Below are positions 3,557 through 36,347 of a DNA stretch of 45,420 nt, one piece after another. The stretch's first letter is position 1, and the number at the start of each line of letters is the position of its first letter. The position numbers and the translations under genes are program-made. The notes under the pieces were generated by a model. That model made no database searches, was not told the DNA's origin, and was given only the letters and a program-made list of their open reading frames with translations. This DNA is from a virus: positions 1 to 45,420 of the IMG/VR virus record IMGVR_UViG_3300012582_000002; one strand, given 5' to 3'.

Positions 3557-3726
3557 TGCTGGCGGTACGGGTTGCTGTTGTCCTCCGGAGCGTTGTCTAC
3601 GAGATACTTGTCGTAGGCGTCGAAGTTGTCAGCCTTGTCCTGCGCCGGGGCGCTGTCGTCCCAGTAGACGTCCTTGCCGTGACCGGCGTTCTCGCTCGGG
3701 TCAGGCTCTCCGCGATGCTTGCTCAC
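3553..3726 (-). CDS. Hypothetical acidic protein (57 aa)
   Basis: Hand-translated ORF below the track cutoff. GTGA coupling at both ends. Confidence 0.45.
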   Translation of the reverse strand: MSKHRGEPDPSENAGHGKDVYWDDSAPAQDKADNFDAYDKYLVDNAPEDNSNPYRQH

Positions 3727-5485: not shown

Positions 5486-5903
5486 CGGGCTTCACCTTTC
5501 CTATCTCTCGGAACGCTGGAGGGTACATCAGATACGACACGATCCTAGCTGCCGCATAGCTGTCGTCCCTGATGTGAGCAAGGATAGAGTTGCACGGCTT
5601 GCAAAGCAAGCCTCGAACGTAGCCAGTATCGTGATCGTGGTCTACGGCGAGCCTGCGAGTCTTGCCGGTGGCTCGTTGGCAGATGTAGCACACGCCTCCC
5701 TGCGCCTCGTAGAGAGCCCAGTATTGCTCGGGGGTAATCCCGTACCGGGCCATGATTCCACGAGCCCAGGAGGCCTCGCTGAGCGCCTTACGGCGGTCTC
5801 TTTGGCAGGTGGCACACCGTGGACCGGGCGCGGTCACCTTGCGGGTGACCGAACCACAGCCTTTGCACGGTTTAGCCAAGCTCACGAGCCACCACAAGCC
5901 CAC
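5475..5903 (-). CDS. Endonuclease VII-family (HNH-like) nuclease
   Basis: CYICQ...LAVDHDHDTGYVRGLLCKPCNSILAHIRD matches the recombination endonuclease VII signature. N-terminal CxxC...CxxC. Start uncertain. Confidence 0.8.
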   Translation of the reverse strand: MGLWWLVSLAKPCKGCGSVTRKVTAPGPRCATCQRDRRKALSEASWARGIMARYGITPEQYWALYEAQGGVCYICQRATGKTRRLAVDHDHDTGYVRGLLCKPCNSILAHIRDDSYAAARIVSYLMYPPAFREIGKVKPDEV

Positions 5904-8194: not shown

Positions 8195-8236
8195 CGGGTG
8201 GGGCTGGAGTCGAACCAGCCCTTCGACCATCCACCC
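8195..8236 (-). ncRNA. tRNA-like minihelix element TLE1 (acceptor-like stem + T-arm, no D/anticodon arms)
   Basis: RNA sense: GGGTGG-ATGGTCGAAG-GGCTGG-TTCGACT-CCAGCC-CCACCC-G. Starts 6 nt after stop 8243-8245. Confidence 0.6.
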
Positions 8237-8242
8237 TGTCGA

Positions 8243-8689
8243 TCAGCTAGCCGCAACCATCTTGACTGCAACCGTCTTGTTGTTGCCCTGACGAGCGGTG
8301 ATCTGCTTGCCGATAGTCACGCCAGCCTCAAGATTGAGGCCGGTAGCCTGCATCTCCGCCTTCAACGCATCCTTCTCCTGCTTGGTGTTGAAGTCGATAC
8401 GCCAGTCCTTGCCGTCCTTGTCGCGGAGCTTCACCACGATCTTGAAGACCGGACGGTGGGTCAGGTTGTCGGCGTCGAACGTGCCTTCAGCCAGCACCTT
8501 CCAGCCCTGAGGGGTCTGGACGTAGTACTTCTGCGGGCCTCGGCCCTTGTCGCTGAACTGGTAGACCGGAACCTGGGTGTCAGGCTCCTCCAGGATGACG
8601 CCGACGATCTTATCGCCAGGCTGCTGAAGCTTTGCGAACGGCGCGCTGTCTCCGCCACCGTTACCGAAGATGTCTCCGAGTGTAGCCAT
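8243..8689 (-). CDS. Hypothetical protein (148 aa)
   Basis: Internal ATG (MATLGDIF...) of tracked ORF 8243..8869, with GGAG upstream. The longer version would overlap the preceding gene. Confidence 0.55.
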   Translation of the reverse strand: MATLGDIFGNGGGDSAPFAKLQQPGDKIVGVILEEPDTQVPVYQFSDKGRGPQKYYVQTPQGWKVLAEGTFDADNLTHRPVFKIVVKLRDKDGKDWRIDFNTKQEKDALKAEMQATGLNLEAGVTIGKQITARQGNNKTVAVKMVAAS

Positions 8690-8708
8690 GTGTCTTGTTT
8701 CTCCTCTA

Positions 8709-9137
8709 TTACCAGTCGATTTCTGCAACCTTGGTGGGCTTGTTCCCACCATTCTCCCACGGCTTGGGTGAGGCGTCAACCTCACCCTCCCAGGGGACAT
8801 CCGTCTCCTCGACCACCGTAGCACCAAGCTCACGCTTGATGACCTCGGCAGCCATAGCGTTGGCTTCATCTACGGTGCGAGGCTTGAGGTCGTCGTCAAG
8901 TCGCCGTGCGGCAGCCTCTGGGCTGCCGACCTCGGACTCGACTACACCCTTGCCGATCTCGACATCGAGTGCAGCACCGACCTTAAACCCCTGAGTGAAG
9001 AGGTTGACGTAGACCGCAGCAGCCACACCCAGATCGGAGGCGCTGGCCACGTTGGTGAGACCCAGCTCCTCGGGAGTGGCTCGCACCTTCACGTTACCGT
9101 ACTGCACGGTAGGCAGGGTGAGTTCGATCTCAGCCAT
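8709..9137 (-). CDS. Hypothetical protein (142 aa)
   Basis: ATG at 9137 overlaps the TAA of the upstream gene (TAATG). Tracked ORF 8709..9197. Confidence 0.55.
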   Translation of the reverse strand: MAEIELTLPTVQYGNVKVRATPEELGLTNVASASDLGVAAAVYVNLFTQGFKVGAALDVEIGKGVVESEVGSPEAAARRLDDDLKPRTVDEANAMAAEVIKRELGATVVEETDVPWEGEVDASPKPWENGGNKPTKVAEIDW

Positions 9138-15154: not shown

Positions 15155-15577
15155 TTACTTCTCCAGCGGATAGGCAGACCGAGACACATCGATCATGTTT
15201 TCCTTGATGCTCTCGACAACGACGTCATGAGCGTCTCGGAACGCCTCCCAGGAGGAGTGTGTCTGGATGAACCTGACCGCATCTCGCTGGCCCTGTAGGG
15301 CCAACTTGCGGGCCCCTGAGAGTGCATCCCGACCGACATGGATGACGCACGTCTCGTACGCCGGAGGGATGTCGCTGCTCAGCAGCTTGCCCGACCAGAT
15401 CTTGAAAAGCAGGGCCGGGTTTTCAAGCTCAGGGTTGGTGGTGGTGACCACAGCGTAGTCTCCCACGTATGTGATCATACGGCCGTACTCGGTCTCCTCG
15501 TCGAACACCGCCTCATCGATCCGGTGATGGACTGCACAGTCTTCGCCCATCGGGCAGTCTTCGAACTCGTCTGTCAC
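15155..15577 (-). CDS. Hypothetical protein (140 aa)
   Basis: Tracked ORF, GTGA-coupled start. Confidence 0.6.
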   Translation of the reverse strand: MTDEFEDCPMGEDCAVHHRIDEAVFDEETEYGRMITYVGDYAVVTTTNPELENPALLFKIWSGKLLSSDIPPAYETCVIHVGRDALSGARKLALQGQRDAVRFIQTHSSWEAFRDAHDVVVESIKENMIDVSRSAYPLEK

Positions 15578-15981
15578 TTTATTCCCCTTACTCTCTTTGC
15601 GTTCAGAACAGCGAAGACGACTTGGCCGTTGAGACCAACCCTGACTTCACTCTCTGGCACTTCGTACTGCTGCTCCTCGAAGCCTACAGCCTGAAGAGTC
15701 CTCAGGCATCCCTTGAACCACCGCCTGAGCGAGACCGGGTCTGCGAAACCGCAGACCTCCCACTCTTGGATGTTGTTGAGCAGGCGGTCGGCGTAGGGCG
15801 TGAGGTGAATGCGGGTGCAGGACTTACTGACCAGCTTCTCACGCGCCTCCATGAACTGTTCAAGCTTCTTGGGGTCGCTATCGGACCACTCCATAACGTA
15901 CCAGGAGCCTGCGTAGGGGCCGCAAGGCATGTTGACGCGCTTGTCGATGACCTCTTTGTGTGCGAGGCGGTAAACGATCAT
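15574..15981 (-). CDS. Hypothetical protein (135 aa)
   Basis: Tracked ORF, AGGAG RBS. Confidence 0.6.
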   Translation of the reverse strand: MIVYRLAHKEVIDKRVNMPCGPYAGSWYVMEWSDSDPKKLEQFMEAREKLVSKSCTRIHLTPYADRLLNNIQEWEVCGFADPVSLRRWFKGCLRTLQAVGFEEQQYEVPESEVRVGLNGQVVFAVLNAKRVRGIK

Positions 15982-16000
15982 AACGGTCTCCTGTTGCGTG

Positions 16001-16135
16001 CTAAGCGTCCACGTCTTCAGGCTCGTAGTCGAACCGAGGTTCGGTACCAGCGCTACGCAGCTCTTCGCAGAGAGCGGAGCAGAAGCCCCACTGATCAGCG
16101 GAGAGAGAGACGTGACAGATTACGCACTTGTCCAT
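16001..16135 (-). CDS. 44-aa Cys-rich (CxxC...C...C) protein
   Basis: Hand-translated MDKCVICHVSLSADQWGFCSALCEELRSAG.... AAGGGA RBS. Confidence 0.45.
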   Translation of the reverse strand: MDKCVICHVSLSADQWGFCSALCEELRSAGTEPRFDYEPEDVDA

Positions 16136-16152
16136 GATTTCCCTTTCTGAAC

Positions 16153-16173
16153 GAGCACCCCGCAAGGGTGCTC
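16153..16173 (-). terminator. GC hairpin immediately 3' of TLE3
   Basis: GAGCACCC-(5)-GGGTGCTC, 8 bp. Confidence 0.45.
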
Positions 16174-16176
16174 TAG

Positions 16177-16217
16177 TGCCTGCCTAGGACTCGCACCTAG
16201 GTGTGTGCTGCTCAGGC
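16177..16217 (-). ncRNA. tRNA-like minihelix element TLE3
   Basis: RNA sense GCCTG-AGCAGCACACA-CCTAGG-TGCGAGT-CCTAGG-CAGGC-A. Starts 6 nt after stop 16224-16226. Confidence 0.55.
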
Positions 16218-16223
16218 TACCTG

Positions 16224-16751
16224 TTACCAGCCGAGATCAACAGGTACCAGCTCCTCTGTCTTCTCGTCAACCATGATGTTGGCGCCATGCAAGTCCTGGA
16301 TGCCCATACGGTCCATCAGGACACGCCTAAGGCTCCAGTAGCCCATTCCGGGGCCGTCGTTGTGGGAGTAGTTGTCCAGCTCTCTGCCTGTCACCAGCTC
16401 CATAGCGATGACCGCTTCGTCATCCAGGTCGTAGAGCTCATGCCGAGGAAGGCGAGAGCCTGGAGGCATCTCGCACTCAAGGCGGAGGCGCTCCAGGTTC
16501 TCATGCTCACTCCAGTTGGACTGGCAACCTTCATAGTCGTCATCGTCAGGGTCCCGAGGGGACTGCTCCACCTTGTAGGCGACCCCATCAGGGGACGCGA
16601 ACACAGTGCGGTAACAGCCCTCCCCAAGCAGCCTCCAGCCCTCAGGGGCTGCCTTGGAGAAGTAGTCGTACCCCCACTTGTGCTTGGAGGCCTCCTCGCG
16701 GTACCAGTCACGGATGAACAGAGCATCTTCCGCGTTGCCGATCATGCCCAT
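16224..16751 (-). CDS. Minimal protein-kinase-like protein, paralog B (175 aa)
   Basis: LGEGCYRTV (G-loop), VAYKV (VAIK Lys), DLHGANIMV (DxxxxN), PVDLG (DFG-like). The protein ends 2 aa after the DFG position. Confidence 0.6.
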   Translation of the reverse strand: MGMIGNAEDALFIRDWYREEASKHKWGYDYFSKAAPEGWRLLGEGCYRTVFASPDGVAYKVEQSPRDPDDDDYEGCQSNWSEHENLERLRLECEMPPGSRLPRHELYDLDDEAVIAMELVTGRELDNYSHNDGPGMGYWSLRRVLMDRMGIQDLHGANIMVDEKTEELVPVDLGW

Positions 16752-16796
16752 GATCTCTCCAGATCATAGTGGAGAACGCCCTGTGCGCTCTCTTTG

Positions 16797-16838
16797 TCCC
16801 TCGGATGAGGCTCGCACTCATCTGCCGCTAGTCGAGGG
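16797..16838 (-). ncRNA. tRNA-like minihelix element TLE4
   Basis: RNA sense CCCTCG-ACTAGCGGCA-GATGAG-TGCGAGC-CTCATC-CGAGGG-A. Starts 8 nt after stop 16847-16849. Confidence 0.55.
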
Positions 16839-16846
16839 TGACCGAG

Positions 16847-17353
16847 TCAGCGACCAAAGTCCACCGGAATCAGGACTTTGGTCGACTCTTCGATCATAAC
16901 GTTCTCGCTGTGCATGTCGCACAGGTTGTAGGCACACTCGATCTGCCACATAAGGTCGGTGATCTCTTTGGGCTGATCCCAGGAGTAAAGGGCGTAGACC
17001 GTCTTGCCAACGATGCGCTCCATAGCGAGCACACCGTTACCGCTGAAGCCAAGCGGGTAGAAAGAGCAGGCGGGGAGACGAGAGCCTACAGGGGCTTCTC
17101 TGTCCCGCGCCCTCTCCAGGGCCTGATACTCGCCCTCGTTCGACTGGACACTGTCGGGGCGGTGCTGCACTTTGTACGCAACACCGTCGGGTGACAGCCA
17201 CACCGAACGGAACGAGCCCTCACCCAGGTAGGTCCAACCCTCAGGGGGGTCGCTCCTCATGTGCTGAGTGGTGCGAGGGTACTTCTCCTCGCCATACCAG
17301 GCACGTACCCAGTCGCGGATAAGCCTGGCATCTGCTTCGTTACCGATCTCCAC
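16847..17353 (-). CDS. Minimal protein-kinase-like protein, paralog A (168 aa)
   Basis: LGEGSFRSV, VAYKV, DMHSENVMI, PVDFG in kinase order and spacing. Ends right after DFG. GTG start with AGGAG RBS. Confidence 0.6.
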   Translation of the reverse strand: MEIGNEADARLIRDWVRAWYGEEKYPRTTQHMRSDPPEGWTYLGEGSFRSVWLSPDGVAYKVQHRPDSVQSNEGEYQALERARDREAPVGSRLPACSFYPLGFSGNGVLAMERIVGKTVYALYSWDQPKEITDLMWQIECAYNLCDMHSENVMIEESTKVLIPVDFGR

Positions 17354-17362
17354 GGCCTACTC

Positions 17363-17446
17363 CTACTTGTAGAGAGACTTGAGGAGGGCTCCGACAGCCC
17401 TGAAGGCTATGTACGCCACCAGGACAAACAGGATGATGTCCATCAT
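17363..17446 (-). CDS. 27-aa hydrophobic peptide
   Basis: Hand-translated MMDIILFVLVAYIAFRAVGALLKSLYK. AAGGGA RBS. Confidence 0.45.
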   Translation of the reverse strand: MMDIILFVLVAYIAFRAVGALLKSLYK

Positions 17447-17486
17447 GTTCCCTTTCGCGAAGAACGTCACTGTGTGTGATGTCCAG

Positions 17487-17528
17487 CGCCCCGGGCTGGA
17501 GTCGAACCAGCCTATGGCCGTTCGGGGC
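17487..17528 (-). ncRNA. tRNA-like minihelix element TLE5
   Basis: RNA sense GCCCCG-AACGGCCATA-GGCTGG-TTCGACT-CCAGCC-CGGGGC-G. T-arm identical to TLE1. Preceded by three hairpins. Confidence 0.6.
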
Positions 17529-17605
17529 TGCCCACACGCCTTTGTGTGAGCCTACGAGCACCTAGTAGGGCATCGGCCTGCCACTAGGTGTCCGGGTGTC
17601 TGTAG

Positions 17606-17625
17606 GAGGCCCCTGAGGGGGCCTC
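17606..17625 (-). terminator. GC hairpin after 17635..17931
   Basis: GAGGCCCC-(4)-GGGGCCTC, 8 bp. Confidence 0.5.
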
Positions 17626-17634
17626 TTGGGGGTC

Positions 17635-17931
17635 TTAACGATCCTGATCTGCTTCATACTCACTCGCCCACTTGAGAGCCTCGGCCTTGGTGTTGAAGCC
17701 CAAGAATGTACCCACCGTGTTCACCTCGCCAGTGAGGCGGGCGAAACGGACTGTGTACCGCCTCGGGGAGTTGAAGTCCTCACGCTCGGAAGACACGAAG
17801 AACGCGCCCTCGGGGTGCTGGACCAGCTCCGGATACAGGATGGAGTCGAAGAACGCCATAGAAGACTCATCGAACCAGTGATGGCCGATAGCCTTGTTGG
17901 CCCACTTGATCTCTTGGAGGCTGTTGAACAT
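17635..17931 (-). CDS. Hypothetical protein (98 aa)
   Basis: Tracked ORF, AAGGGAG RBS 6 nt upstream. Confidence 0.6.
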   Translation of the reverse strand: MFNSLQEIKWANKAIGHHWFDESSMAFFDSILYPELVQHPEGAFFVSSEREDFNSPRRYTVRFARLTGEVNTVGTFLGFNTKAEALKWASEYEADQDR

Positions 17932-17959
17932 GTCCCACTCCCTTGGTCATCGAACTGCG

Positions 17960-18000
17960 TGCCCGCTCTGGACTCGAACCAGAGAGTATGCCATTCGGGC
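17960..18000 (-). ncRNA. tRNA-like minihelix element TLE6
   Basis: RNA sense GCCCG-AATGGCATACT-CTCTGG-TTCGAGT-CCAGAG-CGGGC-A. Starts 7 nt after stop 18008-18010. Confidence 0.6.
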
Positions 18001-18007
18001 TAGGTGC

Positions 18008-18277
18008 CTAGCGACGCTTGTACGACGGTCCGCCGAACTTGCGGACTGCCGGGGCGTTGCCCTTGCGGGGTGCAGGCTGCACCTTCACGTGACCACTACC
18101 ATACTTAGGGTAGTAGTGGTAATGGTGGTGCGTGTCGTAGTAGCCGTGGCTGGTGTCGTGCGGGTAGTACCCGCCGCTATTGCCACCAGGGTCGTTGCAT
18201 GCCACTACAGCTACAAGCACGATCACAGCAAGGAAGAGCCCCGCAACAAACGTGAGGATCTTGCTTTCGCTGTCCAT
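18008..18277 (-). CDS. Single-pass membrane protein with His/Tyr-rich tail (89 aa)
   Basis: TM segment ILTFVAGLFLAVIVLVAVVA, then GGYYPHDTSHGYYDTHHHYHYYPKYGSGH and a basic C-terminus. GGGAGG RBS. Confidence 0.6.
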   Translation of the reverse strand: MDSESKILTFVAGLFLAVIVLVAVVACNDPGGNSGGYYPHDTSHGYYDTHHHYHYYPKYGSGHVKVQPAPRKGNAPAVRKFGGPSYKRR

Positions 18278-18294
18278 ATTGTCCTCCCTAGACA

Positions 18295-18314
18295 GGCAAG
18301 GCCTTCGCCTTGCC
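18295..18314 (-). terminator. GC hairpin immediately 3' of TLE7
   Basis: GGCAAGGC-(4)-GCCTTGCC, 8 bp. Confidence 0.45.
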
Positions 18315-18318
18315 CTAG

Positions 18319-18359
18319 CGCCTCTCTACGGCTCGAACGTAGATGCCTGCCTGCGAGGC
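18319..18359 (-). ncRNA. tRNA-like minihelix element TLE7
   Basis: RNA sense GCCTC-GCAGGCAGGCA-TCTACG-TTCGAGC-CGTAGA-GAGGC-G. Starts 7 nt after stop 18367-18369. Confidence 0.6.
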
Positions 18360-18366
18360 TTACTGC

Positions 18367-18738
18367 CTAGCGATACGACCGTACAGCCTGCCCTACGGAG
18401 TGGCTCCAGGTATATCCACTGTCTTGCGTGCCTTGAGCGATCTGGAGCATGCGGGCAACGTTGCTGTCGGTGTAGTTGATGACGCCTTCGCTCCTCAAGT
18501 CTACGAGCAGGTCTTCGGCGGGGACGCCGAGGCTGTCGCTAACCCCCCCGTCGGCCCGCACGAGGCGCTCCAGAGGCACTCCAGCGTTGTGGAGGAAGTG
18601 TCCGACGATGCACGAAGGCTGACCGCCCTCTACGTAGAGACACACACCCCCAGCATGCGGGTAGCGATACTCCTCACCCTTGAGGTCCACGAGGGAATGC
18701 AGACCCTCGACGACGTCTTTGATGGTGATCTCGATCAT
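18367..18738 (-). CDS. Hypothetical protein (123 aa)
   Basis: Tracked ORF 18367..18744. ATG 18738 preferred because AAGGGA lies 6 nt upstream. Confidence 0.6.
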   Translation of the reverse strand: MIEITIKDVVEGLHSLVDLKGEEYRYPHAGGVCLYVEGGQPSCIVGHFLHNAGVPLERLVRADGGVSDSLGVPAEDLLVDLRSEGVINYTDSNVARMLQIAQGTQDSGYTWSHSVGQAVRSYR

Positions 18739-18759
18739 GTCCACTCCCTTGACGTGCCA

Positions 18760-18778
18760 GGCGCCCCTTACGGGCGCC
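18760..18778 (-). terminator. GC hairpin immediately 3' of TLE8
   Basis: GGCGCCC-(5)-GGGCGCC, 7 bp. Confidence 0.45.
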
Positions 18779-18781
18779 CGA

Positions 18782-18824
18782 GTAGGTGCTCAGGACTCGA
18801 ACCTGAGTGTCTGCCTGTCACCCA
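18782..18824 (-). ncRNA. tRNA-like minihelix element TLE8
   Basis: RNA sense TGGGTG-ACAGGCAGACA-CTCAGG-TTCGAGT-CCTGAG-CACCTA-C (one G-U pair). Starts 5 nt after stop 18830-18832. Confidence 0.6.
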
Positions 18825-18829
18825 TCCTG

Positions 18830-19051
18830 CTAGTAGCCCTGAGTCTCTACGTACTCGAAGGCCATCCATGCCACCTGGTTGTGCGTTTTACGCACCCCTG
18901 TGGTGATAATGTCGTCGAAGATGATGTTGGCGGAGTGGGAGACAGAGACTCTCCAATCGCCCTCGTAGGCCTGGCCTACAGTGCCACCACCAACCTTGTC
19001 GGTCCTGATGACGTGCTCACCATACATGTGCGTGGTCTCACTCATCGTCAC
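18830..19051 (-). CDS. Hypothetical protein (73 aa)
   Basis: Tracked ORF. Start 19051 or 19045. Confidence 0.55.
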   Translation of the reverse strand: MTMSETTHMYGEHVIRTDKVGGGTVGQAYEGDWRVSVSHSANIIFDDIITTGVRKTHNQVAWMAFEYVETQGY

Positions 19052-19118
19052 TCCAGTTGCTACCGATGAAGAACAGCAGGACTACCAAGAAGCCTATGAT
19101 GGCTGAGTTGGTACTCAC
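19038..19118 (-). CDS. Possible 26-aa hydrophobic peptide
   Basis: Hand-translated VSTNSAIIGFLVVLLFFIGSNWSDDDE. GTGA-coupled to 19115..19357. Confidence 0.3.
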   Translation of the reverse strand: MSTNSAIIGFLVVLLFFIGSNWSDDE

Positions 19119-19357
19119 GGGTTCTTCACGGCAACGAGGACGCTGAGAGTGTTCTCGGCGTCCGTGCTGTATACCTTGTAGCGGTCGGCCGTAACGGCCG
19201 AGCCTACCAGGCGGAGAGAGAGCAGGAGCTTGTCCAGCTTCTCGTCAAACGGGTCGCCCTCGTCAGACACCAGATCGGTCACCTCTCGCAAGGTGGCTTT
19301 GGTGTTCCTGCCGATCAGCTCACCGTCGATGATTACATAGACCGTGTACGTTTCCAT
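19115..19357 (-). CDS. First early-arm protein (80 aa), hypothetical
   Basis: ATG (METYTVYVIIDG...) with GGAAGGA RBS. The tracked ORF extends to 19420 without support. Confidence 0.55.
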   Translation of the reverse strand: METYTVYVIIDGELIGRNTKATLREVTDLVSDEGDPFDEKLDKLLLSLRLVGSAVTADRYKVYSTDAENTLSVLVAVKNP

Positions 19358-20571
19358 GTTGATCCTTCCTGCGGAGCCAGTTGGGTGCACCTGCCTGTGG
19401 CAGCACACGTGCACCCTCAAGCTCTTACAGGGAATTTGGACTACCTAGCTCGCGTTGACCGTCAAGGACAAGTCTACGAGCAGCCCCGCAAGGGCTGCGC
19501 TCACACTGTCGGCATCAACCGCGACAGCTAGGTGACTCTCTATTCAGTTCTCAAGGATCTTGCTTCCAGGTGCTACCTCAGCCTCTTCGAGACTCTGCGC
19601 TCACCTGCTCCTCCACCTATCCAACCGTGTGGCTGGCCTTCCGGCTGAGGAGGACTATCCAGGACTCTTGCGAGTCTGTCAAGCCCCTCTTTTCTTGCTG
19701 TCTGCGCCTCCCCCTTCGTGGCGGGTTGTGCTGACAGGTAGAACAATCCTCTTCCGGTGCCCACCTGTCAACACCCAACCTAAAGAATCTTGGGGTGTGC
19801 AGGTGAGGGGCTGTGTGCTGTGGTGCTGGCGGGGAGAGAGCAGGGCTACTGCTGCCCACCATGAGGGTGCATGCGTGCACGTGCACGCGCGTGTATGACC
19901 TGCGATGTGGAGGCAGGGTGCATAGTCCACCCCCACAATCCAAGGCGATTGAGCAATATGTCCAACTAATCGCAGCTAGCAGGACCATATGTCCTACATA
20001 TTGCAGCCTAGCCATACCATGTGTACACATGTGCAGCACGCCGCTCAGATGAGCAGCCCAGCGCAGCCCACATCACCATGATCTACCCACAGCTACCCAA
20101 GTCGGACACAGTGTGACATCTCATGAGGCGGCAGGACATGTCGGACCCGGGGGTTTTAACTGGGAGCGGACACTGTGTGTGTGAGACCCCATATAAATTT
20201 GCCATAGAATTGCCAGGTACAAGTTCTACCCAGAGTGACCATGACACACCACTTCCATCACTCTCCGTAGATAGTTGGTAAAGAGTAGGTAACGTTGCTT
20301 GCGCGCAAGGACGAGATAGACCCCGTACTGTATATGAGTAGAAAAACTTACCATGGGCGCCTACAACCACACAGGCTCACAGCCAACTGCACCCGTCAGA
20401 CCAGACCCCCTCCGGGGGCTGGTCGTGCACACGGTCTGCTATATCAACCCACTGCAAGTTTCCTTAACTGTCCTCTTACGCGGAATCTCTCCCCGCTGAG
20501 TACCAGGGCCTAGCGGCCCTGGAGCTTATAGGCACCCATGGCAAACAGGAGAGTCAACGGAGGTACAGCAA
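19358..20571. other. 1.2-kb ORF-poor divergent control region (candidate promoters, packaging/replication signals, possible ncRNA)
   Basis: Only short ORFs with non-protein-like composition. Dense hairpins, palindromes, an alternating Pu-Py tract, locally AT-richer sequence. Lies between the first early gene and the terminase. Confidence 0.7.
19654..19682 (-). promoter_or_regulatory. Candidate sigma-70-type early promoter
   Basis: Minus strand TTGACA-17 nt-GATAGT. Points into the early arm, about 290 nt upstream of the first early ATG. Confidence 0.3.
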
Positions 20572-22521
20572 GTGGCCACTGTCTACCTGGACGACGACGG
20601 GAACGTTGTCGAAGCCAAGAAGATCCAGCGTAAGCGGGGTCGGAAGGCCAACCGAACGGTGCAGGAGAAGAAGGACACCATCCTGAGGTACATGAAGGAT
20701 GGTATCTCGGTGGCTGAGGCTTGCAGGGATCTGGACATCACCAAGCAGACCGTTCAGTACTACAAGACGTCGGACAAGAGCTTCCGCGTCGTGTATGAGC
20801 GGTACCGTCTGATGAGGACCGCCGGTGCTCTGGCTGCTACCACAGAGGTTCCCGACTTCCCCGAGTTCTGCATGGAGTACTTGGACACCCAGTTGTTCAA
20901 CCATCAGCTTCAGTGGTATGACGTCCTGGAGGGACGTCCTCCTCGCAACCTCCACGAGGTACAGGTGTTCCACCAGGGTGACCCTGGCATGATCATAGTG
21001 AACACCCCTCCGGAGCATGCGAAGTCCACCACTATCACGGTGAACTACACCACGTGGAGGATCTGTCAGGATCCGAACGTGCGTATCATCATCGTCTCTC
21101 AGACTCAGGAGATGGCCAAGCGGTTCCTCAGGGCGATCAAAGACAGGTTGGCTGGAGCCAACCCTTCCTACAAGAAGCTGCAAGCAGACTTCGCCCCCGA
21201 CGGTGGCTTCGATGCGAACTCCGCGTCGTGGACTGCTGACTCTATCTATGTGAACGCGGAAGCCCGAGACTCCGGCGAGGCGACGCCTACCGTGCAGGCT
21301 CTGGGTATGAACGGTCAGATCTACGGTAACCGTGCTGACCTCATCATCCTCGACGATACCGTGACAGGAAAGAACGCTCATGAGTTCGAGAAGCAGATCG
21401 ACTGGATCCAGCGAGAGGTCATCAACCGACTCACCTATCCAGGAGGAACTCTCCTACTGGTCGGTACGCGGCTTGCTCCGGTTGAGCTATATTCTGAGAT
21501 TCAGAAGCCCGAATGGTACGGGCAGGATGAGCAGTCACCTTGGACCTACCTCACGCAGCCTGCTGTACTTGAGTTTGCCGAGTCTCCAGACGACTGGACT
21601 GTTCTCGCACCCGTCACCAACCGGCCACCAGTTTCGCTTGGAACAAGAAAGCTGGTGGAAGCAAGGCCGGACGGACTCTACCCCTGGCACTCAGGCAAGG
21701 CGCTCGCCCGAAGGCGAGCGACCTCCAGTCCGCAGAACTGGAAGATGGTCTACCAGCAGGAGCAGGTCGTAGAGGATGCTATATTTCCCTCAAACAAAGT
21801 GGCCGCAAGTATCGACGGCATGCGAGCAGCCGGGCTCATGTCCTCAGGGGCACCCGGTCACCGTCCACACGGAATGGACGGCCTCTATGTCGTGGGTGGG
21901 TTCGACCCTGCCATCACTGGCCATGCAGCCGCCCTCGTCCTTGGCGTGGATCGTATGTCCGGAATGCGATATGTTCTGGACGTCTGGACCGCTCCAAATC
22001 AGAAGCCAGACGACCTCTTCAACAAGCTGAAAGACTGGACCGTCAAGTACCACATGCACGAGTGGGTCATCGAGAAGAACGCGATGAACCTGATGGTCAC
22101 CCAGAACCGCGACCTCCGCAACTTCCTTGGCTCTAGAGGTACCGTGCTCAAAGAGCACTTCACCGGAGCCAACAAGAACGACATCGACTTCGGCGTTGCC
22201 TCTATGGCGATGCTCTTCGATGGTGCGCTGGAGGACCGGGGCCTCATCAGGCTTCCCTCTCGTGCGCAGAACGAGGGCATCAAAGCCCTCGTCGAACAGC
22301 TCGTCACATGGTTTCCCCAGTCCAAGGCCAAGCAGGACACGGTCATGGCGCTGTGGTTTGCAGAGACTAGAGCACGTGAACTCGTGAACGACATCGAGTC
22401 CGTGTTCCACCTTAGCAACGAGTACCAGTCCCCTCGGGACAAAGAGAAGCAGACGACGATCGACCTCGACTATCTGAGCCAGACCTCGATGTATGGCGGC
22501 TCAGGAGAATGGTGGAACTAA
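20572..22521 (+). CDS. Terminase large subunit with N-terminal HTH domain
   Basis: GTG with GGAGG RBS. HTH-like ILRYMKDGISVAEACRDLDITKQTVQYYK, ATPase PEHAKST (Walker A-like) and ADLIILDD (Walker B), nuclease-domain VVGGFDPA. Confidence 0.8.
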   Translation: MATVYLDDDGNVVEAKKIQRKRGRKANRTVQEKKDTILRYMKDGISVAEACRDLDITKQTVQYYKTSDKSFRVVYERYRLMRTAGALAATTEVPDFPEFCMEYLDTQLFNHQLQWYDVLEGRPPRNLHEVQVFHQGDPGMIIVNTPPEHAKSTTITVNYTTWRICQDPNVRIIIVSQTQEMAKRFLRAIKDRLAGANPSYKKLQADFAPDGGFDANSASWTADSIYVNAEARDSGEATPTVQALGMNGQIYGNRADLIILDDTVTGKNAHEFEKQIDWIQREVINRLTYPGGTLLLVGTRLAPVELYSEIQKPEWYGQDEQSPWTYLTQPAVLEFAESPDDWTVLAPVTNRPPVSLGTRKLVEARPDGLYPWHSGKALARRRATSSPQNWKMVYQQEQVVEDAIFPSNKVAASIDGMRAAGLMSSGAPGHRPHGMDGLYVVGGFDPAITGHAAALVLGVDRMSGMRYVLDVWTAPNQKPDDLFNKLKDWTVKYHMHEWVIEKNAMNLMVTQNRDLRNFLGSRGTVLKEHFTGANKNDIDFGVASMAMLFDGALEDRGLIRLPSRAQNEGIKALVEQLVTWFPQSKAKQDTVMALWFAETRARELVNDIESVFHLSNEYQSPRDKEKQTTIDLDYLSQTSMYGGSGEWWN

Positions 22522-34976: not shown

Positions 34977-36125
34977 ATGGCAGCGCTGCCCACGTTTCGT
35001 GAGTCTGTGGCTCTAGCTCACAGCGCCTCCCCGCCCAACTCGCAGCAACTGCTTGATGCGGCTAAGGCTCAGCAGGCTGGCAACTCCCGGAAGATCACTC
35101 TTCTCAAGTATCAGGAGTCCAAGCTCAAGAAGCCAAACCCCAAGGACCATCAGGCTGTAGCCAGATACAAAGCCCAGAAGGCTAAGTACGATGTGCAGAT
35201 CAAGACTCTCAACACCACGAACGCTGGCATCGCCAAGAAGATTCCCGGCATGCAGAACAAGGTGTACGAGGATACCGGGCAGTACGAGAAGCTGCTGACA
35301 GGGACGAACAGAGATGCCTATATGGCGCTCAAGTCCTTGTTCGGTTCGTATGGTCTCAGCTCCCTGGCTGACAAGATCTACGGCTACGTGAAGAACGGTG
35401 AGTCGGCAGACACGATCTCGATCGAGCTGCAAGACACTCCGGAATACAAGACTCGGTTTGCTGGCAATGAGGCACGGAAGGCAGCAGGCCTTCCGGTCCT
35501 GTCTCCCGGCGACTACCTCAACACCGAAGCCAGCTACAAGCAGATCATGCAGACAGCCGGAATGCCTTCCGGCTTCTACGACCAGCCCGCCGACTTCAAC
35601 AACTGGATCGGGAAGAACATCTCCCCGACCGAGATTCAGAATCGTGTGGACCTGGCATCGCAGGCGACCATCCTGGCTAACCCGCAATACCGTGCGGCTC
35701 TCAACCAGATGGGCATAGACGACGCCCATATGACCGCCTACTTCCTTGATACCACCAAGGCTATGCCTTACCTCCAGAAGGCTGCGGCAACCGCTCAGAT
35801 CGGCGCTGAGGCCCTTCGTCAGAACCTTCAGTTCGATCAGGGTTATGCGGAGCAGCTCGCAACCGAGGGCATCTCGGCAGACACCGCACGCCAGGGTTAC
35901 CAGCAGATAGCTGGTGAGCTTGACACCATGAAGGCCCTGGGTGGCTACTACGGGGATGAGTGGAATCAGAAGCAAGGTGAGGCTGCAACGTTCGGTACGC
36001 CGGGCGGTACGGCAGCTCAGGCTAAGCAGAGGCGCCTCCTCTCTCAAGAGAGAGGCGCATTCGCAGGCTCAACAGGATCGGCCAAGGGACTTGGTGGACT
36101 CACCCAGTCTCGTGGAGCACAGTAA
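34977..36125 (+). CDS. Hypothetical virion protein (382 aa)
   Basis: Tracked ORF, AAGGAGG RBS. Confidence 0.6.
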   Translation: MAALPTFRESVALAHSASPPNSQQLLDAAKAQQAGNSRKITLLKYQESKLKKPNPKDHQAVARYKAQKAKYDVQIKTLNTTNAGIAKKIPGMQNKVYEDTGQYEKLLTGTNRDAYMALKSLFGSYGLSSLADKIYGYVKNGESADTISIELQDTPEYKTRFAGNEARKAAGLPVLSPGDYLNTEASYKQIMQTAGMPSGFYDQPADFNNWIGKNISPTEIQNRVDLASQATILANPQYRAALNQMGIDDAHMTAYFLDTTKAMPYLQKAAATAQIGAEALRQNLQFDQGYAEQLATEGISADTARQGYQQIAGELDTMKALGGYYGDEWNQKQGEAATFGTPGGTAAQAKQRRLLSQERGAFAGSTGSAKGLGGLTQSRGAQ

Positions 36126-36149: not shown

Positions 36150-36222
36150 TGACTCATAGCTCAGTCGGCAGAGCGGTGCACTGTTAATGCACAGGTCGCA
36201 GGTTCGAATCCTGCTGAGTCAG
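36150..36222 (+). tRNA. tRNA-Asn: tRNA-Asn (anticodon GTT)
   Basis: Full cloverleaf folded by hand. 7-bp acceptor TGACTCA/TGAGTCA, D-arm GCTC/GAGC, anticodon stem GTGCA/TGCAC with loop CTGTTAA, T-arm GCAGG-TTCGAAT-CCTGC, discriminator G. CCA not encoded. Confidence 0.9.
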
Positions 36223-36347
36223 CCGTTGCGAGGATCAACCGGCCCCTCGTGATGTACCTAAGACCGGACGAAGAACACAACCGACGAGCGTGCACACATC
36301 ACCCCATGGTGTGTGCTATGGCGTCACTACCTTTATGGGAGGGTCTC

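Follow-up and report, generated by a model that had tools for sequence, protein, structure and literature searches.

Seven elements of 40 to 43 nt lie on the minus (gene) strand of the window, the whole 45,420-nt stretch analyzed here, which is a ~45-kb relative of the Streptomyces BI-cluster phages. Six fall at 16177-18824 and one at 8195-8236. Each consists of a 5- to 6-bp outer stem, a 10- to 11-nt linker, and a 6-bp inner stem with a G-C closing pair; the loop of the window copies reads T(T/G)CGA(G/C)(T/C), and the outer stem continues the 3′ strand without a break. The six array copies proposed in the original prediction are all present with the architecture it described, by reading as well as by scanning, and the seventh, which it placed at 8195, is recovered by the strict scan. 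The elements and their accompanying features are as follows.

19654..19682, minus strand: promoter-like site, TTGACA-17-GATAGT, upstream of the array; a consensus match only
18782..18824, minus strand: copy 1, class I; outer stem (T)GGGTG/CACCT(A), linker ACAGGCAGACA, inner stem CTCAGG/CCTGAG, loop TTCGAGT; 57.6 bits; starts 5 nt past the TAG stop codon at 18830-18832
18757..18781, minus strand: GC hairpin immediately 3′ of copy 1, ahead of the next gene's RBS and start codon; the 55 nt downstream of copy 1 fold at -23.2 kcal/mol
18319..18359, minus strand: copy 2, class I; outer stem GCCTC/GAGGC, linker GCAGGCAGGCA, inner stem TCTACG/CGTAGA, loop TTCGAGC; 52 bits; G at linker position 9 pairs with C at loop position 7; starts 7 nt past a stop codon
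18294..18315, minus strand: GC hairpin 3′ of copy 2
17960..18000, minus strand: copy 3, class I; outer stem GCCCG/CGGGC, linker AATGGCATACT, inner stem CTCTGG/CCAGAG, loop TTCGAGT; 62.9 bits; starts 7 nt past a stop codon, with no strong hairpin downstream
17487..17528, minus strand: copy 4, variant class; outer stem GCCCCG/CGGGGC, linker AACGGCCATA, inner stem GGCTGG/CCAGCC, loop TTCGACT; 33 bits; lies 106 nt past a stop codon, with three other hairpins between
16797..16838, minus strand: copy 5; outer stem CCCTCG/CGAGGG, 10-nt linker ACTAGCGGCA, inner stem GATGAG/CTCATC, loop TGCGAGC; A/G variant of the G18-U55-like contact; starts 8 nt past a stop codon
16772..16792, minus strand: GC hairpin 3′ of copy 5
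16177..16217, minus strand: copy 6, class I, A/G variant; outer stem GCCTG/CAGGC, linker AGCAGCACACA, inner stem CCTAGG/CCTAGG, loop TGCGAGT; 60.2 bits; starts 6 nt past a stop codon
16153..16173, minus strand: GC hairpin 3′ of copy 6
8195..8236, minus strand: copy 7, variant class; outer stem GGGTGG/CCACCC, linker ATGGTCGAAG, inner stem GGCTGG/CCAGCC, loop TTCGACT; 27 bits; starts 6 nt past the stop codon of a 208-aa ORF (8243-8869)

The strict architecture scan returned these seven on the minus strand and none on the plus strand, against a mean of 0.04 and a maximum of 1 for both strands of 100 dinucleotide-preserving shuffles of the whole window; shuffled sequence does not reproduce the architecture at a similar frequency. 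Copies 4 and 7 (17528 and 8236) fall into a variant class, which differs in its linker, and they score weakly with the model. The copy at 16838 passes the strict scan yet is absent from the covariance-model search output at E<=1. Folding energies of single copies are unremarkable (z -1.2 to -2.4 for the seven), and the proposed fold is the minimum-energy structure in five of them; the support for the element is comparative, not thermodynamic. As originally noted, five of the six array copies start 5-8 nt past a stop codon, and a strong GC hairpin stands behind four of the six rather than the three then counted. The site at 19654-19682 is a candidate early promoter for a polycistronic transcript.

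Covariation and resemblance to the top half of a tRNA

Compensatory stem changes had been taken as a sign of selection on RNA structure, and the wider family bears this out. More than 145 distinct copies show covariation in both stems, 98-99% of their cells being paired, and none of 500 shuffles reaches the observed values; the L050 counterpart of copy 5, for instance, carries the compensatory change GGTGAG/CTCACC. Outside Watson-Crick pairing, the stems contain 25 G-U pairs and a single A-C, which points to an element that acts as RNA of the gene strand.

The linker is constrained as well. Its position 9 pairs with loop position 7 in 75 of 75 and in 145 of 145 distinct copies (AU 98, GC 35, UA 6, GU 4, CG 2), although neither the scan nor the covariance model selects for this pair, and the pairing as a whole, read from covariation, joins linker positions 9-10 to loop positions 7-6. 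Linker G4 and G5 stand opposite loop positions 2 and 3 (U55 and C56), as do G18-U55 and G19-C56 in tRNA. G5 and loop C3 are invariant, and linker 4/loop 2 is G-U in 66 copies and A-G in nine, the G4-to-A change accompanying loop U2-to-G in nine of nine. In silico, the linker is thus shown to be a D-loop mimic and no passive spacer, within an element that mimics the acceptor stem, the T arm, and the elbow; the elbow contact, of the kind a D loop makes with a T loop, is read from covariation only. The original statement that there is no D arm stands for the arm itself, but the linker is more than a spacer.

The other part of that comparison, an acceptor-like stem on a T arm with a loop of the T54-A58 type, is strengthened. 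As in the T arm of tRNA, the loop follows T(T/G)C(G/A)A.., with the closing G-C in 145 of 145 copies. The 5- to 6-bp acceptor-like stem, shorter than the 7-bp acceptor stem of tRNA, stacks on the 6-bp T stem to give a helix of 11-12 bp, 11 bp in most copies versus 12 bp in tRNA. The first pair is G-C, with G at +1 in 140 of 145; the base after the helix, in the place of the discriminator, is a purine (A 114, G 31) and the next is C in 145 of 145, in columns that are part of the model and rows that are its top 150 matches, so that these counts lean to the consensus. The element accordingly ends in a near-invariant R-C, its tails reading R-C-T/G-N, and CCA is not encoded. Position -1 is mostly A. 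As in t-element and mascRNA-type signals, an acceptor-like helix is stacked on a T arm and set within a longer transcript, here between ORFs on the gene strand.

Distribution, placement, and excluded identities

We searched the covariance model of the element against viral contigs, cultured phages, and prophages. Metagenomic relatives, identified through terminase, gave 113 matches, all on the gene strand, and other viral contigs gave 206 gene-strand matches. Among cultured phages, the element is carried on the gene strand by the Streptomyces R4-like phages Endor1 and Joe and by mycobacteriophage Oaker, and it recurs, again on that strand, in actinobacterial prophages and in transposable prophages of Bacteroidota and of an Oscillospiraceae genome. 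Rather than being peculiar to the phage of the window, it forms a conserved, co-varying family in hundreds of phages and prophages of several bacterial phyla, Streptomyces and Mycobacterium phages included. The BI-cluster phages lack it, and their equivalent gaps hold plain GC hairpins only, which places the element with transcript-end or processing signals.

The typical distance from a stop codon to the start of the element is 6-10 nt (67 of 107 cases), and the next start codon follows at a median of 42 nt downstream; the GenBank gene calls of Oaker and Endor1 give the same layout. A GC hairpin usually lies 0-4 nt behind, and where the downstream fold is stable it begins 0-4 nt past the base after the discriminator in 81 of 85 cases (mode 2). 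We found no U tracts in the gaps between genes; three terminator-like sites turned up in 15500-20600, all of them away from the elements and their follow-on hairpins. Mycobacterial RNA polymerase requires a U tract for termination (PMC3993855), and together these points make read-through transcripts that need cutting plausible. The original idea of gene punctuation would suit the arrangement between early genes here; some phages, however, carry tandem arrays of 4-7 copies with no ORFs between (L146, L087, L132, L252), so punctuation cannot be the whole story. In the Bacteroidota transposable prophages, the element immediately precedes the transposase gene, apparently near the transcript start, a position for which a leader or regulatory role is at least as good an account as processing. 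Its distance to the transposase start codon in transposable prophages is 15-30 nt.

No family in Rfam 15 matches the element. At gathering scores, the window gave no match to a self-cleaving ribozyme or phage motif, and 15900-19100 gave nothing relevant at E<=10. None of the 40 cultured-phage records listed, out of 137 with a match, is annotated at the element, and our literature search found no description of it, in keeping with the original remark that no such phage system had been described. A cloverleaf tRNA (RF00005) is rejected because only 10-11 nt separate the acceptor strand from the T stem and the D and anticodon arms are absent; the sole tRNA that ARAGORN and Rfam find in the window is a tRNA-Asn at 36150-36224, with none at the elements even at E<=10. 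ARAGORN finds no tmRNA, and among the outer stems tabulated across copies the third pair shows no conserved G-U. An intrinsic terminator would combine a hairpin with a U tract, which the elements do not. Stoperators of cluster A and R4-like phages are asymmetric, conserved, repressor-bound DNA sites of 13-16 bp, whereas the stems here vary freely, and the R4 motif TGTGCAAGTGTNGC (PMC10276819) is unrelated. The intergenic gaps of Endor1 hold a different recurring motif, TGTGACAGTG, beside the elements, which is taken to be the Endor1 stoperator. Against an integron attC site, whose imperfect palindrome is a substrate for the integron integrase in folded single-stranded form, no integrase appears among the window proteins scanned, and the excess of G-U over A-C and the conserved T loop point to RNA.

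Possible roles and related systems

Our leading proposal, which we hold tentatively and at somewhat less than even confidence, is that the elements are host RNase P/RNase Z processing sites in long early transcripts. A fold that resembles a pre-tRNA and lacks CCA could be recognized by host tRNA-end enzymes, and host factors are implied because the window encodes no recognizable RNA-processing enzyme. Minihelices made of acceptor stem and T arm serve bacterial RNase P, RNase Z, and the CCA-adding enzyme as substrates, and the spread over phages of several phyla suits a partner as universal as these. The predicted cuts fall ahead of G+1, by RNase P, and/or behind the purine at the 3′ border, by RNase Z. 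After a 3′ cut, the upstream mRNA would end in a compact tRNA-like structure open to repair with CCA, and the downstream mRNA would begin ~2 nt before a strong hairpin that would shield its new 5′ end; cuts by both enzymes would release a ~41-45-nt mini-tRNA. Several features count against such processing. Escherichia coli RNase P favors U at position -1, where the elements mostly have A; the helix is 1 bp short of that of tRNA in most copies; and an RNase P cut would strip the upstream mRNA of its protection a few nucleotides past the stop codon. The ORF-free arrays, and a linker conserved across phyla beyond the needs of a generic elbow mimic, also seem to speak against it.

The main rival of processing is a decoy or sponge, acting in cis or as released mini-tRNAs, for a host factor that recognizes tRNA at its acceptor end or elbow. 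We consider it unlikely, though not negligible. Its targets could be tRNA-directed defense toxins such as MenT/AbiEii-type nucleotidyltransferases or CapRel-type enzymes, or a tRNA enzyme could be captured for the benefit of the phage. The many copies in the earliest host-takeover region, the tandem arrays, the occurrence in phages of unrelated hosts, and a conservation of elbow and R-C tail that exceeds what a simple cleavage signal needs all favor a decoy, and a phage anti-defense protein that works with tRNA fragments offers a precedent (PMC11662646). A decoy, however, would have no need of so narrow a distance to stop codons and to the next hairpin, and we found no partner defense system; anticodon nucleases are excluded as targets by the missing anticodon arm, and a decoy for a CCA-end toxin would have to be processed and given CCA beforehand. 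The two readings might be joined, improbably in our estimation, if RNase P/Z excision and CCA addition produced a pool of ~41-45-nt mini-tRNAs that decoyed or inhibited, in trans, host factors gripping the acceptor end or elbow, such as tRNA-directed abortive-infection toxins. The elements would then constitute a pan-phage, RNA-based counter-defense, with the ORF-free tandem arrays as dedicated production loci.

Comparably improbable is a passive barrier, in which the fold blocks 3′-to-5′ exonucleases, or works like a terminator lacking a tail or like a pause site, tRNA enzymes playing no part. BI-cluster relatives indeed have their plain GC hairpins in the same position, right after stop codons, and another hairpin often adjoins the element, but a plain hairpin would then suffice, as it does in those relatives; the T loop, the D-loop-like linker with its two tertiary contacts, G+1, and the R-C tail would go unexplained, U tracts are absent, and single copies fold unremarkably. 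The narrow distance to the stop codon, which would let a terminating ribosome open the outer stem, and the placement ahead of the transposase start codon could instead suggest that a tRNA-shaped fold meets the terminating or initiating ribosome and couples or tunes expression of the next gene. We regard this as very unlikely: the RBS lies outside the fold, some copies stand far from stop codons or in ORF-free arrays, and, to our knowledge, no such signal has a precedent in bacteria. Least probable of all, and only barely credible, is a DNA-level element such as an attC-like recombination site or cassette boundary, a protein-binding site (stoperator), or a remnant of a tRNA gene or att site. 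The elements are the best-conserved DNA of an otherwise mosaic early region, and the type of element next to orthologous genes changes from phage to phage, as such a site might predict. Against this, stem sequence is free to vary while pairing is kept, G-U predominates over A-C, the strand is always that of the genes, the R4 stoperator motif is unrelated and the presumed one of Endor1 lies beside the elements, the scanned proteins include no integrase, and att cores have neither the 5′ acceptor strand nor the linker.

Among known RNAs, the tRNA-like domain of tmRNA shares an acceptor stem on a T arm, a true T loop, a stemless GG D-loop analogue that touches this loop, and the lack of an anticodon arm. 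Unlike the phage elements, which are ~41 nt long, multi-copy, and embedded between ORFs, tmRNA is one long, free-standing RNA gene that carries an mRNA-like reading frame and ends in CCA, with G3-U70 as its alanine identity pair. The YrlA domain of bacterial Y RNA and the tRNA-like structures of plant viruses are likewise non-tRNAs that mimic tRNA. Both, however, are larger and built differently: YrlA has a Ro-binding stem, and the plant viruses use pseudoknotted acceptor arms at genome 3′ ends; the phage element matches no Rfam entry. The tail-less GC hairpins of the BI cluster share its position directly past early-gene stop codons but are plain stem-loops without a T loop, nested stem, or tertiary covariation. 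Synthetic acceptor/T-arm minihelices have the same two helices and are minimal substrates for RNase P, RNase Z, and CCA addition; these laboratory constructs lack a linker, whereas the natural element adds an elbow mimic. The mascRNA of MALAT1, the tRNA-like 3′ module of MEN-beta, and the viral tRNA-like units of MHV68 are processed by the host's RNase P and RNase Z, and the small tRNA-like RNAs set free in this way receive CCA. They too are tRNA mimics inside longer transcripts, although they are eukaryotic mimics of the full cloverleaf, and the phage element is a top half with many copies per operon. In plant mitochondrial t-elements and mitochondrial tRNA punctuation, cuts by RNase P and RNase Z define mRNA ends at tRNA-shaped folds, including acceptor/T-arm-only ones, between or beside mRNAs, as we propose for the phage element. 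These organellar signals are not related to it in sequence, and their cleavage is established where that of the phage element is proposed; the phage element, for its part, has its own conserved D-loop-mimic linker and R-C tail.

Element copies in the window and their tRNA-like anatomy

On re-reading, the sequence matches exactly the original description of six tRNA-like copies in minus-strand RNA between 16000 and 19000. A script scan for the architecture (loop T[TG]CGA[GC][TC]; inner stem of at least 5 bp; linker; outer stem of at least 5 bp, with its 3′ strand abutting the inner stem) returns seven matches in the window, all on the minus strand, at the following starts:

18824, minus strand, element copy 1
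18359, minus strand, element copy 2
18000, minus strand, element copy 3
17528, minus strand, element copy 4
16838, minus strand, element copy 5
16217, minus strand, element copy 6
8236, minus strand, element copy 7

Shuffled sequence, which the original prediction had named as the comparison, is far from equally rich: 100 dinucleotide-preserving shuffles give a mean of 0.04 matches over both strands and a maximum of 1. When any 7-nt loop is allowed, the architecture shows no excess over shuffles (58 observed, ≈41 expected), and the element thus stands out through its T-loop sequence combined with the architecture. The proposed shape is the minimum-energy structure in five of the seven copies, with z-scores of only −1.2 to −2.4; single-copy folding energy does not discriminate these seven copies, and thermodynamics alone would not flag them.

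The consensus of class I, the main element type, comprises an A at −1, a 5-bp stem starting with G-C, the linker A-N-N-G-G-C-A-K-N-C-W, a 6-bp stem closed by G-C, the loop U-U-C-G-A-G-N, and unbroken 3′ strands followed by R-C. A sixth outer pair occurs in ≈18% of copies, with the same R-C tail after it. The 145 best distinct hits have G at position +1 in 140 cases, a purine directly after the helix (114 A, 31 G), and then C without exception; these columns belonged to the search model, and the ranking of hits leans towards the consensus. The window copies at 17528 and 8236 fall into a less tightly defined variant class, whose loops read UUCGA(C/U)U and whose linkers include AACGGCCATA and AUGGUCGAAG. 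Separate extraction of this class yielded too few clean copies, and the anatomy counts refer to class I.

The stems co-vary. Two alignments of element copies, A1 and A2 (75 and 145 distinct copies), have 98.4% and 99.4% paired cells, respectively, figures that lean towards structure because the A1 stems were selected for pairing by the scan and A2 was fitted to the model. Both-sided changes are found in 11 of 15 pairs, none of 500 shuffles reaches the observed pairing, and sliding the partners lowers pairing to 24–55%. Non-Watson–Crick stem pairs are G-U in 25 cases versus A-C in one, as expected for RNA of the gene strand.

Three features lie outside this selection. A standard pair joins linker position 9 to loop position 7 in 75 of 75 and 145 of 145 distinct copies (AU 98, GC 35, UA 6, GU 4, and CG 2), and the adjoining pair between linker C10 and loop G6 is present in all 145; this pairing of linker positions 9 and 10 engages the two loop bases immediately 3′ of the five-base T-loop motif. 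Linker G4 occurs with loop U2 in 66 copies and linker A4 with loop G2 in nine, with zero exceptions, and linker G5 and loop C3 are nearly invariant. The latter two features recreate the tRNA elbow contacts G18-U55 and G19-C56. From this linker/T-loop covariation and the near invariance of G5 and C3, the sequences argue that the element is a mimic of the acceptor stem, T arm, and elbow together. The originally proposed acceptor/T-arm minihelix therefore holds for both stems and the T loop, but the element goes beyond a bare minihelix, since its linker co-varies with the T loop.

Placement within the early operon

The window phage has a genome of ≈45 kb, with its terminase gene at 20572–22521 on the plus strand; the product is 61–62% identical to the terminases of the Streptomyces BI-cluster phages (Beephvirinae), its cultured relatives. 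Early and replication genes run on the minus strand from ≈20.4 kb down to ≈1.4 kb, and the replication region encodes a PD-(D/E)XK nuclease, a WhiB-like protein, a DnaB-like helicase, a Toprim primase, endonuclease VII, a metallophosphoesterase, and a sigma-like protein. The array genes are small and poorly characterized, encoding two kinase-like paralogues, a DUF7447 protein, and a phrog_572 protein. No phage-encoded RNA-processing enzyme was recognized among 20 window proteins scanned. One further feature lies upstream of the array:

19682–19654, minus strand, promoter-like site

The adjacent kinase-like genes (16847–17353 and 16224–16751, minus strand; 168 and 175 aa) are each followed by an element; both products match phrog_28435, and weak matches extend to phage protein-kinase families, among them the T7 gp0.7-type host shut-off kinase. 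The unusually long and highly structured gap at 17529–17634 (minus strand), which separates copy 4 from the stop of the DUF7447 gene, holds three more hairpins, GAGGCCCCCTCAGGGGCCTC, CACCTAGTGG...CCCTACTAGGTG, and CTCACACAAAGGCGTGTGGG. Directly after copy 4 lies a 27-aa hydrophobic ORF (MMDIILFVLVAYIAFRAVGALLKSLYK; 17363–17446, minus strand) with its own RBS, too short to pass the size thresholds of the ORF lists. Copy 5 and its hairpin are followed by a second hairpin at 16748–16769 (minus strand; ATGATCT GGAG AGATCAT), which presents a Shine-Dalgarno-like GGAG in its loop, includes the next gene's start codon in its 3′ arm, and may modulate translation.

A stretch of ≈1.15 kb (19421–20571) that separates the terminase gene from the first early gene lacks a convincing ORF and contains several promoter-like TTGACA boxes and inverted repeats. 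The physical genome ends probably lie here, as the ends of BI-cluster relatives fall between the terminase and early-gene blocks. On the plus strand, a single tRNA-Asn(GTT) gene (36150–36224) lies between a 382-aa ORF (34977–36125) and the next structural-region genes. BI-cluster relatives have arrays of ≈20 tRNA genes at the equivalent position, which follows a 370–390-aa gene (itself downstream of two ≈430-aa tail-gene products) and precedes the capsid genes.

The untranslated leader, downstream of promoter-like sites, carries the motif AGATCCTTGAGAACTGAA(T/C)AGAG (19536–19560, minus strand). The same motif is found in the early leader of Endor1 (L202, 10696–10709), a Streptomyces phage unrelated to the window phage, and in the phage loci L031, L057, L063, L069, L157, and L186. 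We take it to resemble the boxA-type antitermination sequence found in the leaders of actinobacterial rRNA operons. If it is of that type, early transcription would resist termination, consistent with long transcripts that need processing.

Distribution in relatives and beyond

The relatives set comprised 80 IMG/VR contigs whose terminases are 61–94% identical to that of the window. The strict scan finds 115 copies on the gene strand and one on the other. A search of these relatives with a covariance model, as the original prediction had proposed (R1, made from the 75 distinct class-I copies), gives 113 hits, exclusively on the gene strand, and they lie ≈2–9 kb upstream of the terminase in loci with a full 10-kb flank. 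Some relatives with 75–86% terminase identity have no element; none was found in the BI-cluster phages WRightOn, Stella, Manuel, FlowerPower, and Immanuel3, whose equivalent gaps after early genes hold plain GC hairpins, and megablast of the array gives no match to cultured phages. The early region is mosaic, and its best-conserved pieces in DNA comparisons with relatives are the elements themselves. The compensatory stem changes claimed from the window are borne out between syntenic copies. The copy after the 89-aa gene reads GCCCG...CTCTGG/CCAGAG...CGGGC in the window versus GCCTG...CCCTGG/CCAGGG...CAGGC in the relative L043, and the counterpart of window GATGAG/CTCATC in a second relative, L050, is GGTGAG/CTCACC.

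Among the terminase relatives, 67 of 107 elements begin 6–10 nt past the stop codon of a long ORF and 12 more abut or overlap the stop, and the next RBS-preceded start codon follows at a median of 42 nt downstream. A stable fold occurs within the next 45 nt in 85 of 95 copies, beginning 0–4 nt past the base after the discriminator in 81 of the 85 (mode 2). The extra GC hairpin noted originally is likewise present in the window, after four of the six array copies rather than three.

At least 118 further IMG/VR stretches match a degenerate class I pattern, and the covariance model gives 206 hits in 79 loci among the matches listed. These loci include Endor1 (Camvirus, R4-related), whose early right arm has the same stop-element-hairpin-RBS order as the window, at unannotated element sites. 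BLAST with a consensus copy reaches 785 places in 137 cultured-phage records (113 Streptomyces, 23 Mycobacterium, and 1 Gordonia), with no annotated feature under the match in the 40 records listed. Mycobacteriophage Oaker has a copy in each of at least seven consecutive intergenic gaps, several beginning 5–6 nt after an annotated stop codon.

Bacterial genomes, scanned at one per species and then with the covariance model, contain full-length copies of 45–65 bits; among the loci scanned, ARAGORN calls none of them a tRNA. The hosts include Kribbella, Nonomuraea, Gordonia, Jiangella, and a Gemmatimonadota genome, as well as Hymenobacter, flavobacteria, Parabacteroides, Tenacibaculum, and an Oscillospiraceae genome. 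The linker-9/loop-7 pairing is kept in these copies (e.g. GGCAUUCU with UUCGAGA and GGCAGCCA with UUCGAGG). In the Bacteroidota and in the Oscillospiraceae genome, the copy precedes a phage Mu-like transposase gene by 15–30 nt (phrog_310, E 1e-38 to 1e-53) or adjoins a GemA-like gene, neighbors that identify these loci as transposable prophages.

Some actinobacterial (pro)phages (L146, L087, L132, and L252) carry tandem arrays with a period of ≈115 nt, in which the copies are spaced by GGCNN pentamer repeats with no ORFs in between. Arrays with pentamer spacers are located as follows:

L146, 1600–3050, gene strand, element array with pentamer spacers
L087, 6600–7100, gene strand, element array with pentamer spacers
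L252, 2440–3260, gene strand, element array with pentamer spacers
L254, ≈6990, gene strand, element array with pentamer spacers

The spacers are runs of 10–14 GGCNN repeats (GGCAT GGCAC GGCTC ...); the class-I linker itself includes GGCAGGCA. Our guesses for the spacers are a protein-binding array, two-layer G-quadruplexes, or Rho avoidance.

Candidate roles and comparison with known systems

Several known identities are excluded. ARAGORN and Rfam are negative for real or degenerate tRNA genes and for a tmRNA gene, and no Rfam 15 family matches the elements. The scan of 15500–20600 finds three terminator-like sites, none coinciding with an element or follow-on hairpin, which rules out intrinsic terminators. 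Remnants of att sites would lack the 5′ strand and the linker. The stoperator motif of R4, TGTGCAAGTGTNGC (PMC10276819), differs from the element. Beside the elements and separate from them, TGTGACAGTG recurs in Endor1 intergenic gaps (e.g. 5770–5831 and 3627–3685) and is probably the stoperator of that phage (compare R4). The early region of phiC31 has reportedly been the subject of work on tail-less terminators, which is not transferable here because phiC31 has no element copy.

Comparative sequence evidence shows a conserved predicted RNA fold that copies the part of tRNA bound by RNase P, RNase Z, and the CCA-adding enzyme. It sits between early-operon cistrons, with a close follow-on hairpin and pre-tRNA-like ends (G+1, purine discriminator, and no CCA). 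Our leading reading, to which we give somewhat less than an even chance, is that host RNase Z and/or RNase P cut the early transcript at the element borders. After a 3′ cut, the upstream mRNA would finish in a tRNA-like 3′ end, and a hairpin would stand ≈2 nt from the new 5′ end of the downstream mRNA. Such 3′ ends and 5′-proximal hairpins both slow exonucleolytic or 5′-end-dependent decay. Long read-through transcripts are likely, because the gaps lack U tracts and mycobacterial RNA polymerase is reported to require one for termination (PMC3993855).

The ORF-free arrays and the site before transposase genes indicate that gene punctuation is not the sole use of the element. These same two observations leave room for a decoy or small-RNA role, which we consider unlikely. 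Elements that merely stabilize transcripts passively fit the conserved details less well, and we regard this as quite unlikely; a translation-linked signal shares that poorer fit and seems improbable. A site acting at the DNA level fits poorly too and is highly improbable, given the strand bias, the G-U excess, and the free variation of stem sequence.

Cleavage at the element borders, if it occurs, would explain how long early transcripts are converted into separate stable mRNAs and would offer an easy rule for annotating gene ends, whereas a decoy would represent a new kind of RNA counter-defense. The linker/T-loop contacts also provide a minimal natural model of the tRNA elbow. These readings are directly testable with Endor1, Joe, and Oaker in S. 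coelicolor and M. smegmatis, all of them standard laboratory systems, and the covariation suggests mutate-and-rescue pairs.

Missed by tRNA finders, the element is absent from Rfam 15 and from the annotation of the inspected GenBank phage records; the 10,006 unnamed candidates of PMC10690425 might include it. In agreement with the original prediction, the searchable literature yielded no description of such a phage system, nor of tRNA mimics guiding RNA processing in phage operons.

Processing signals shaped like tRNA are known from mitochondrial punctuation, plant t-elements, mascRNA, and MHV68, that is, from organelles, eukaryotic long non-coding RNAs, and a herpesvirus. What is new here is one compact, sharply defined mimic of the tRNA top half and elbow that recurs in arrays within early or leader regions, spread over more than 130 cultured Streptomyces and Mycobacterium phage records, many metagenomic phages, and transposable prophages of other phyla. 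Its closest structural analogue is the tRNA-like domain of tmRNA.
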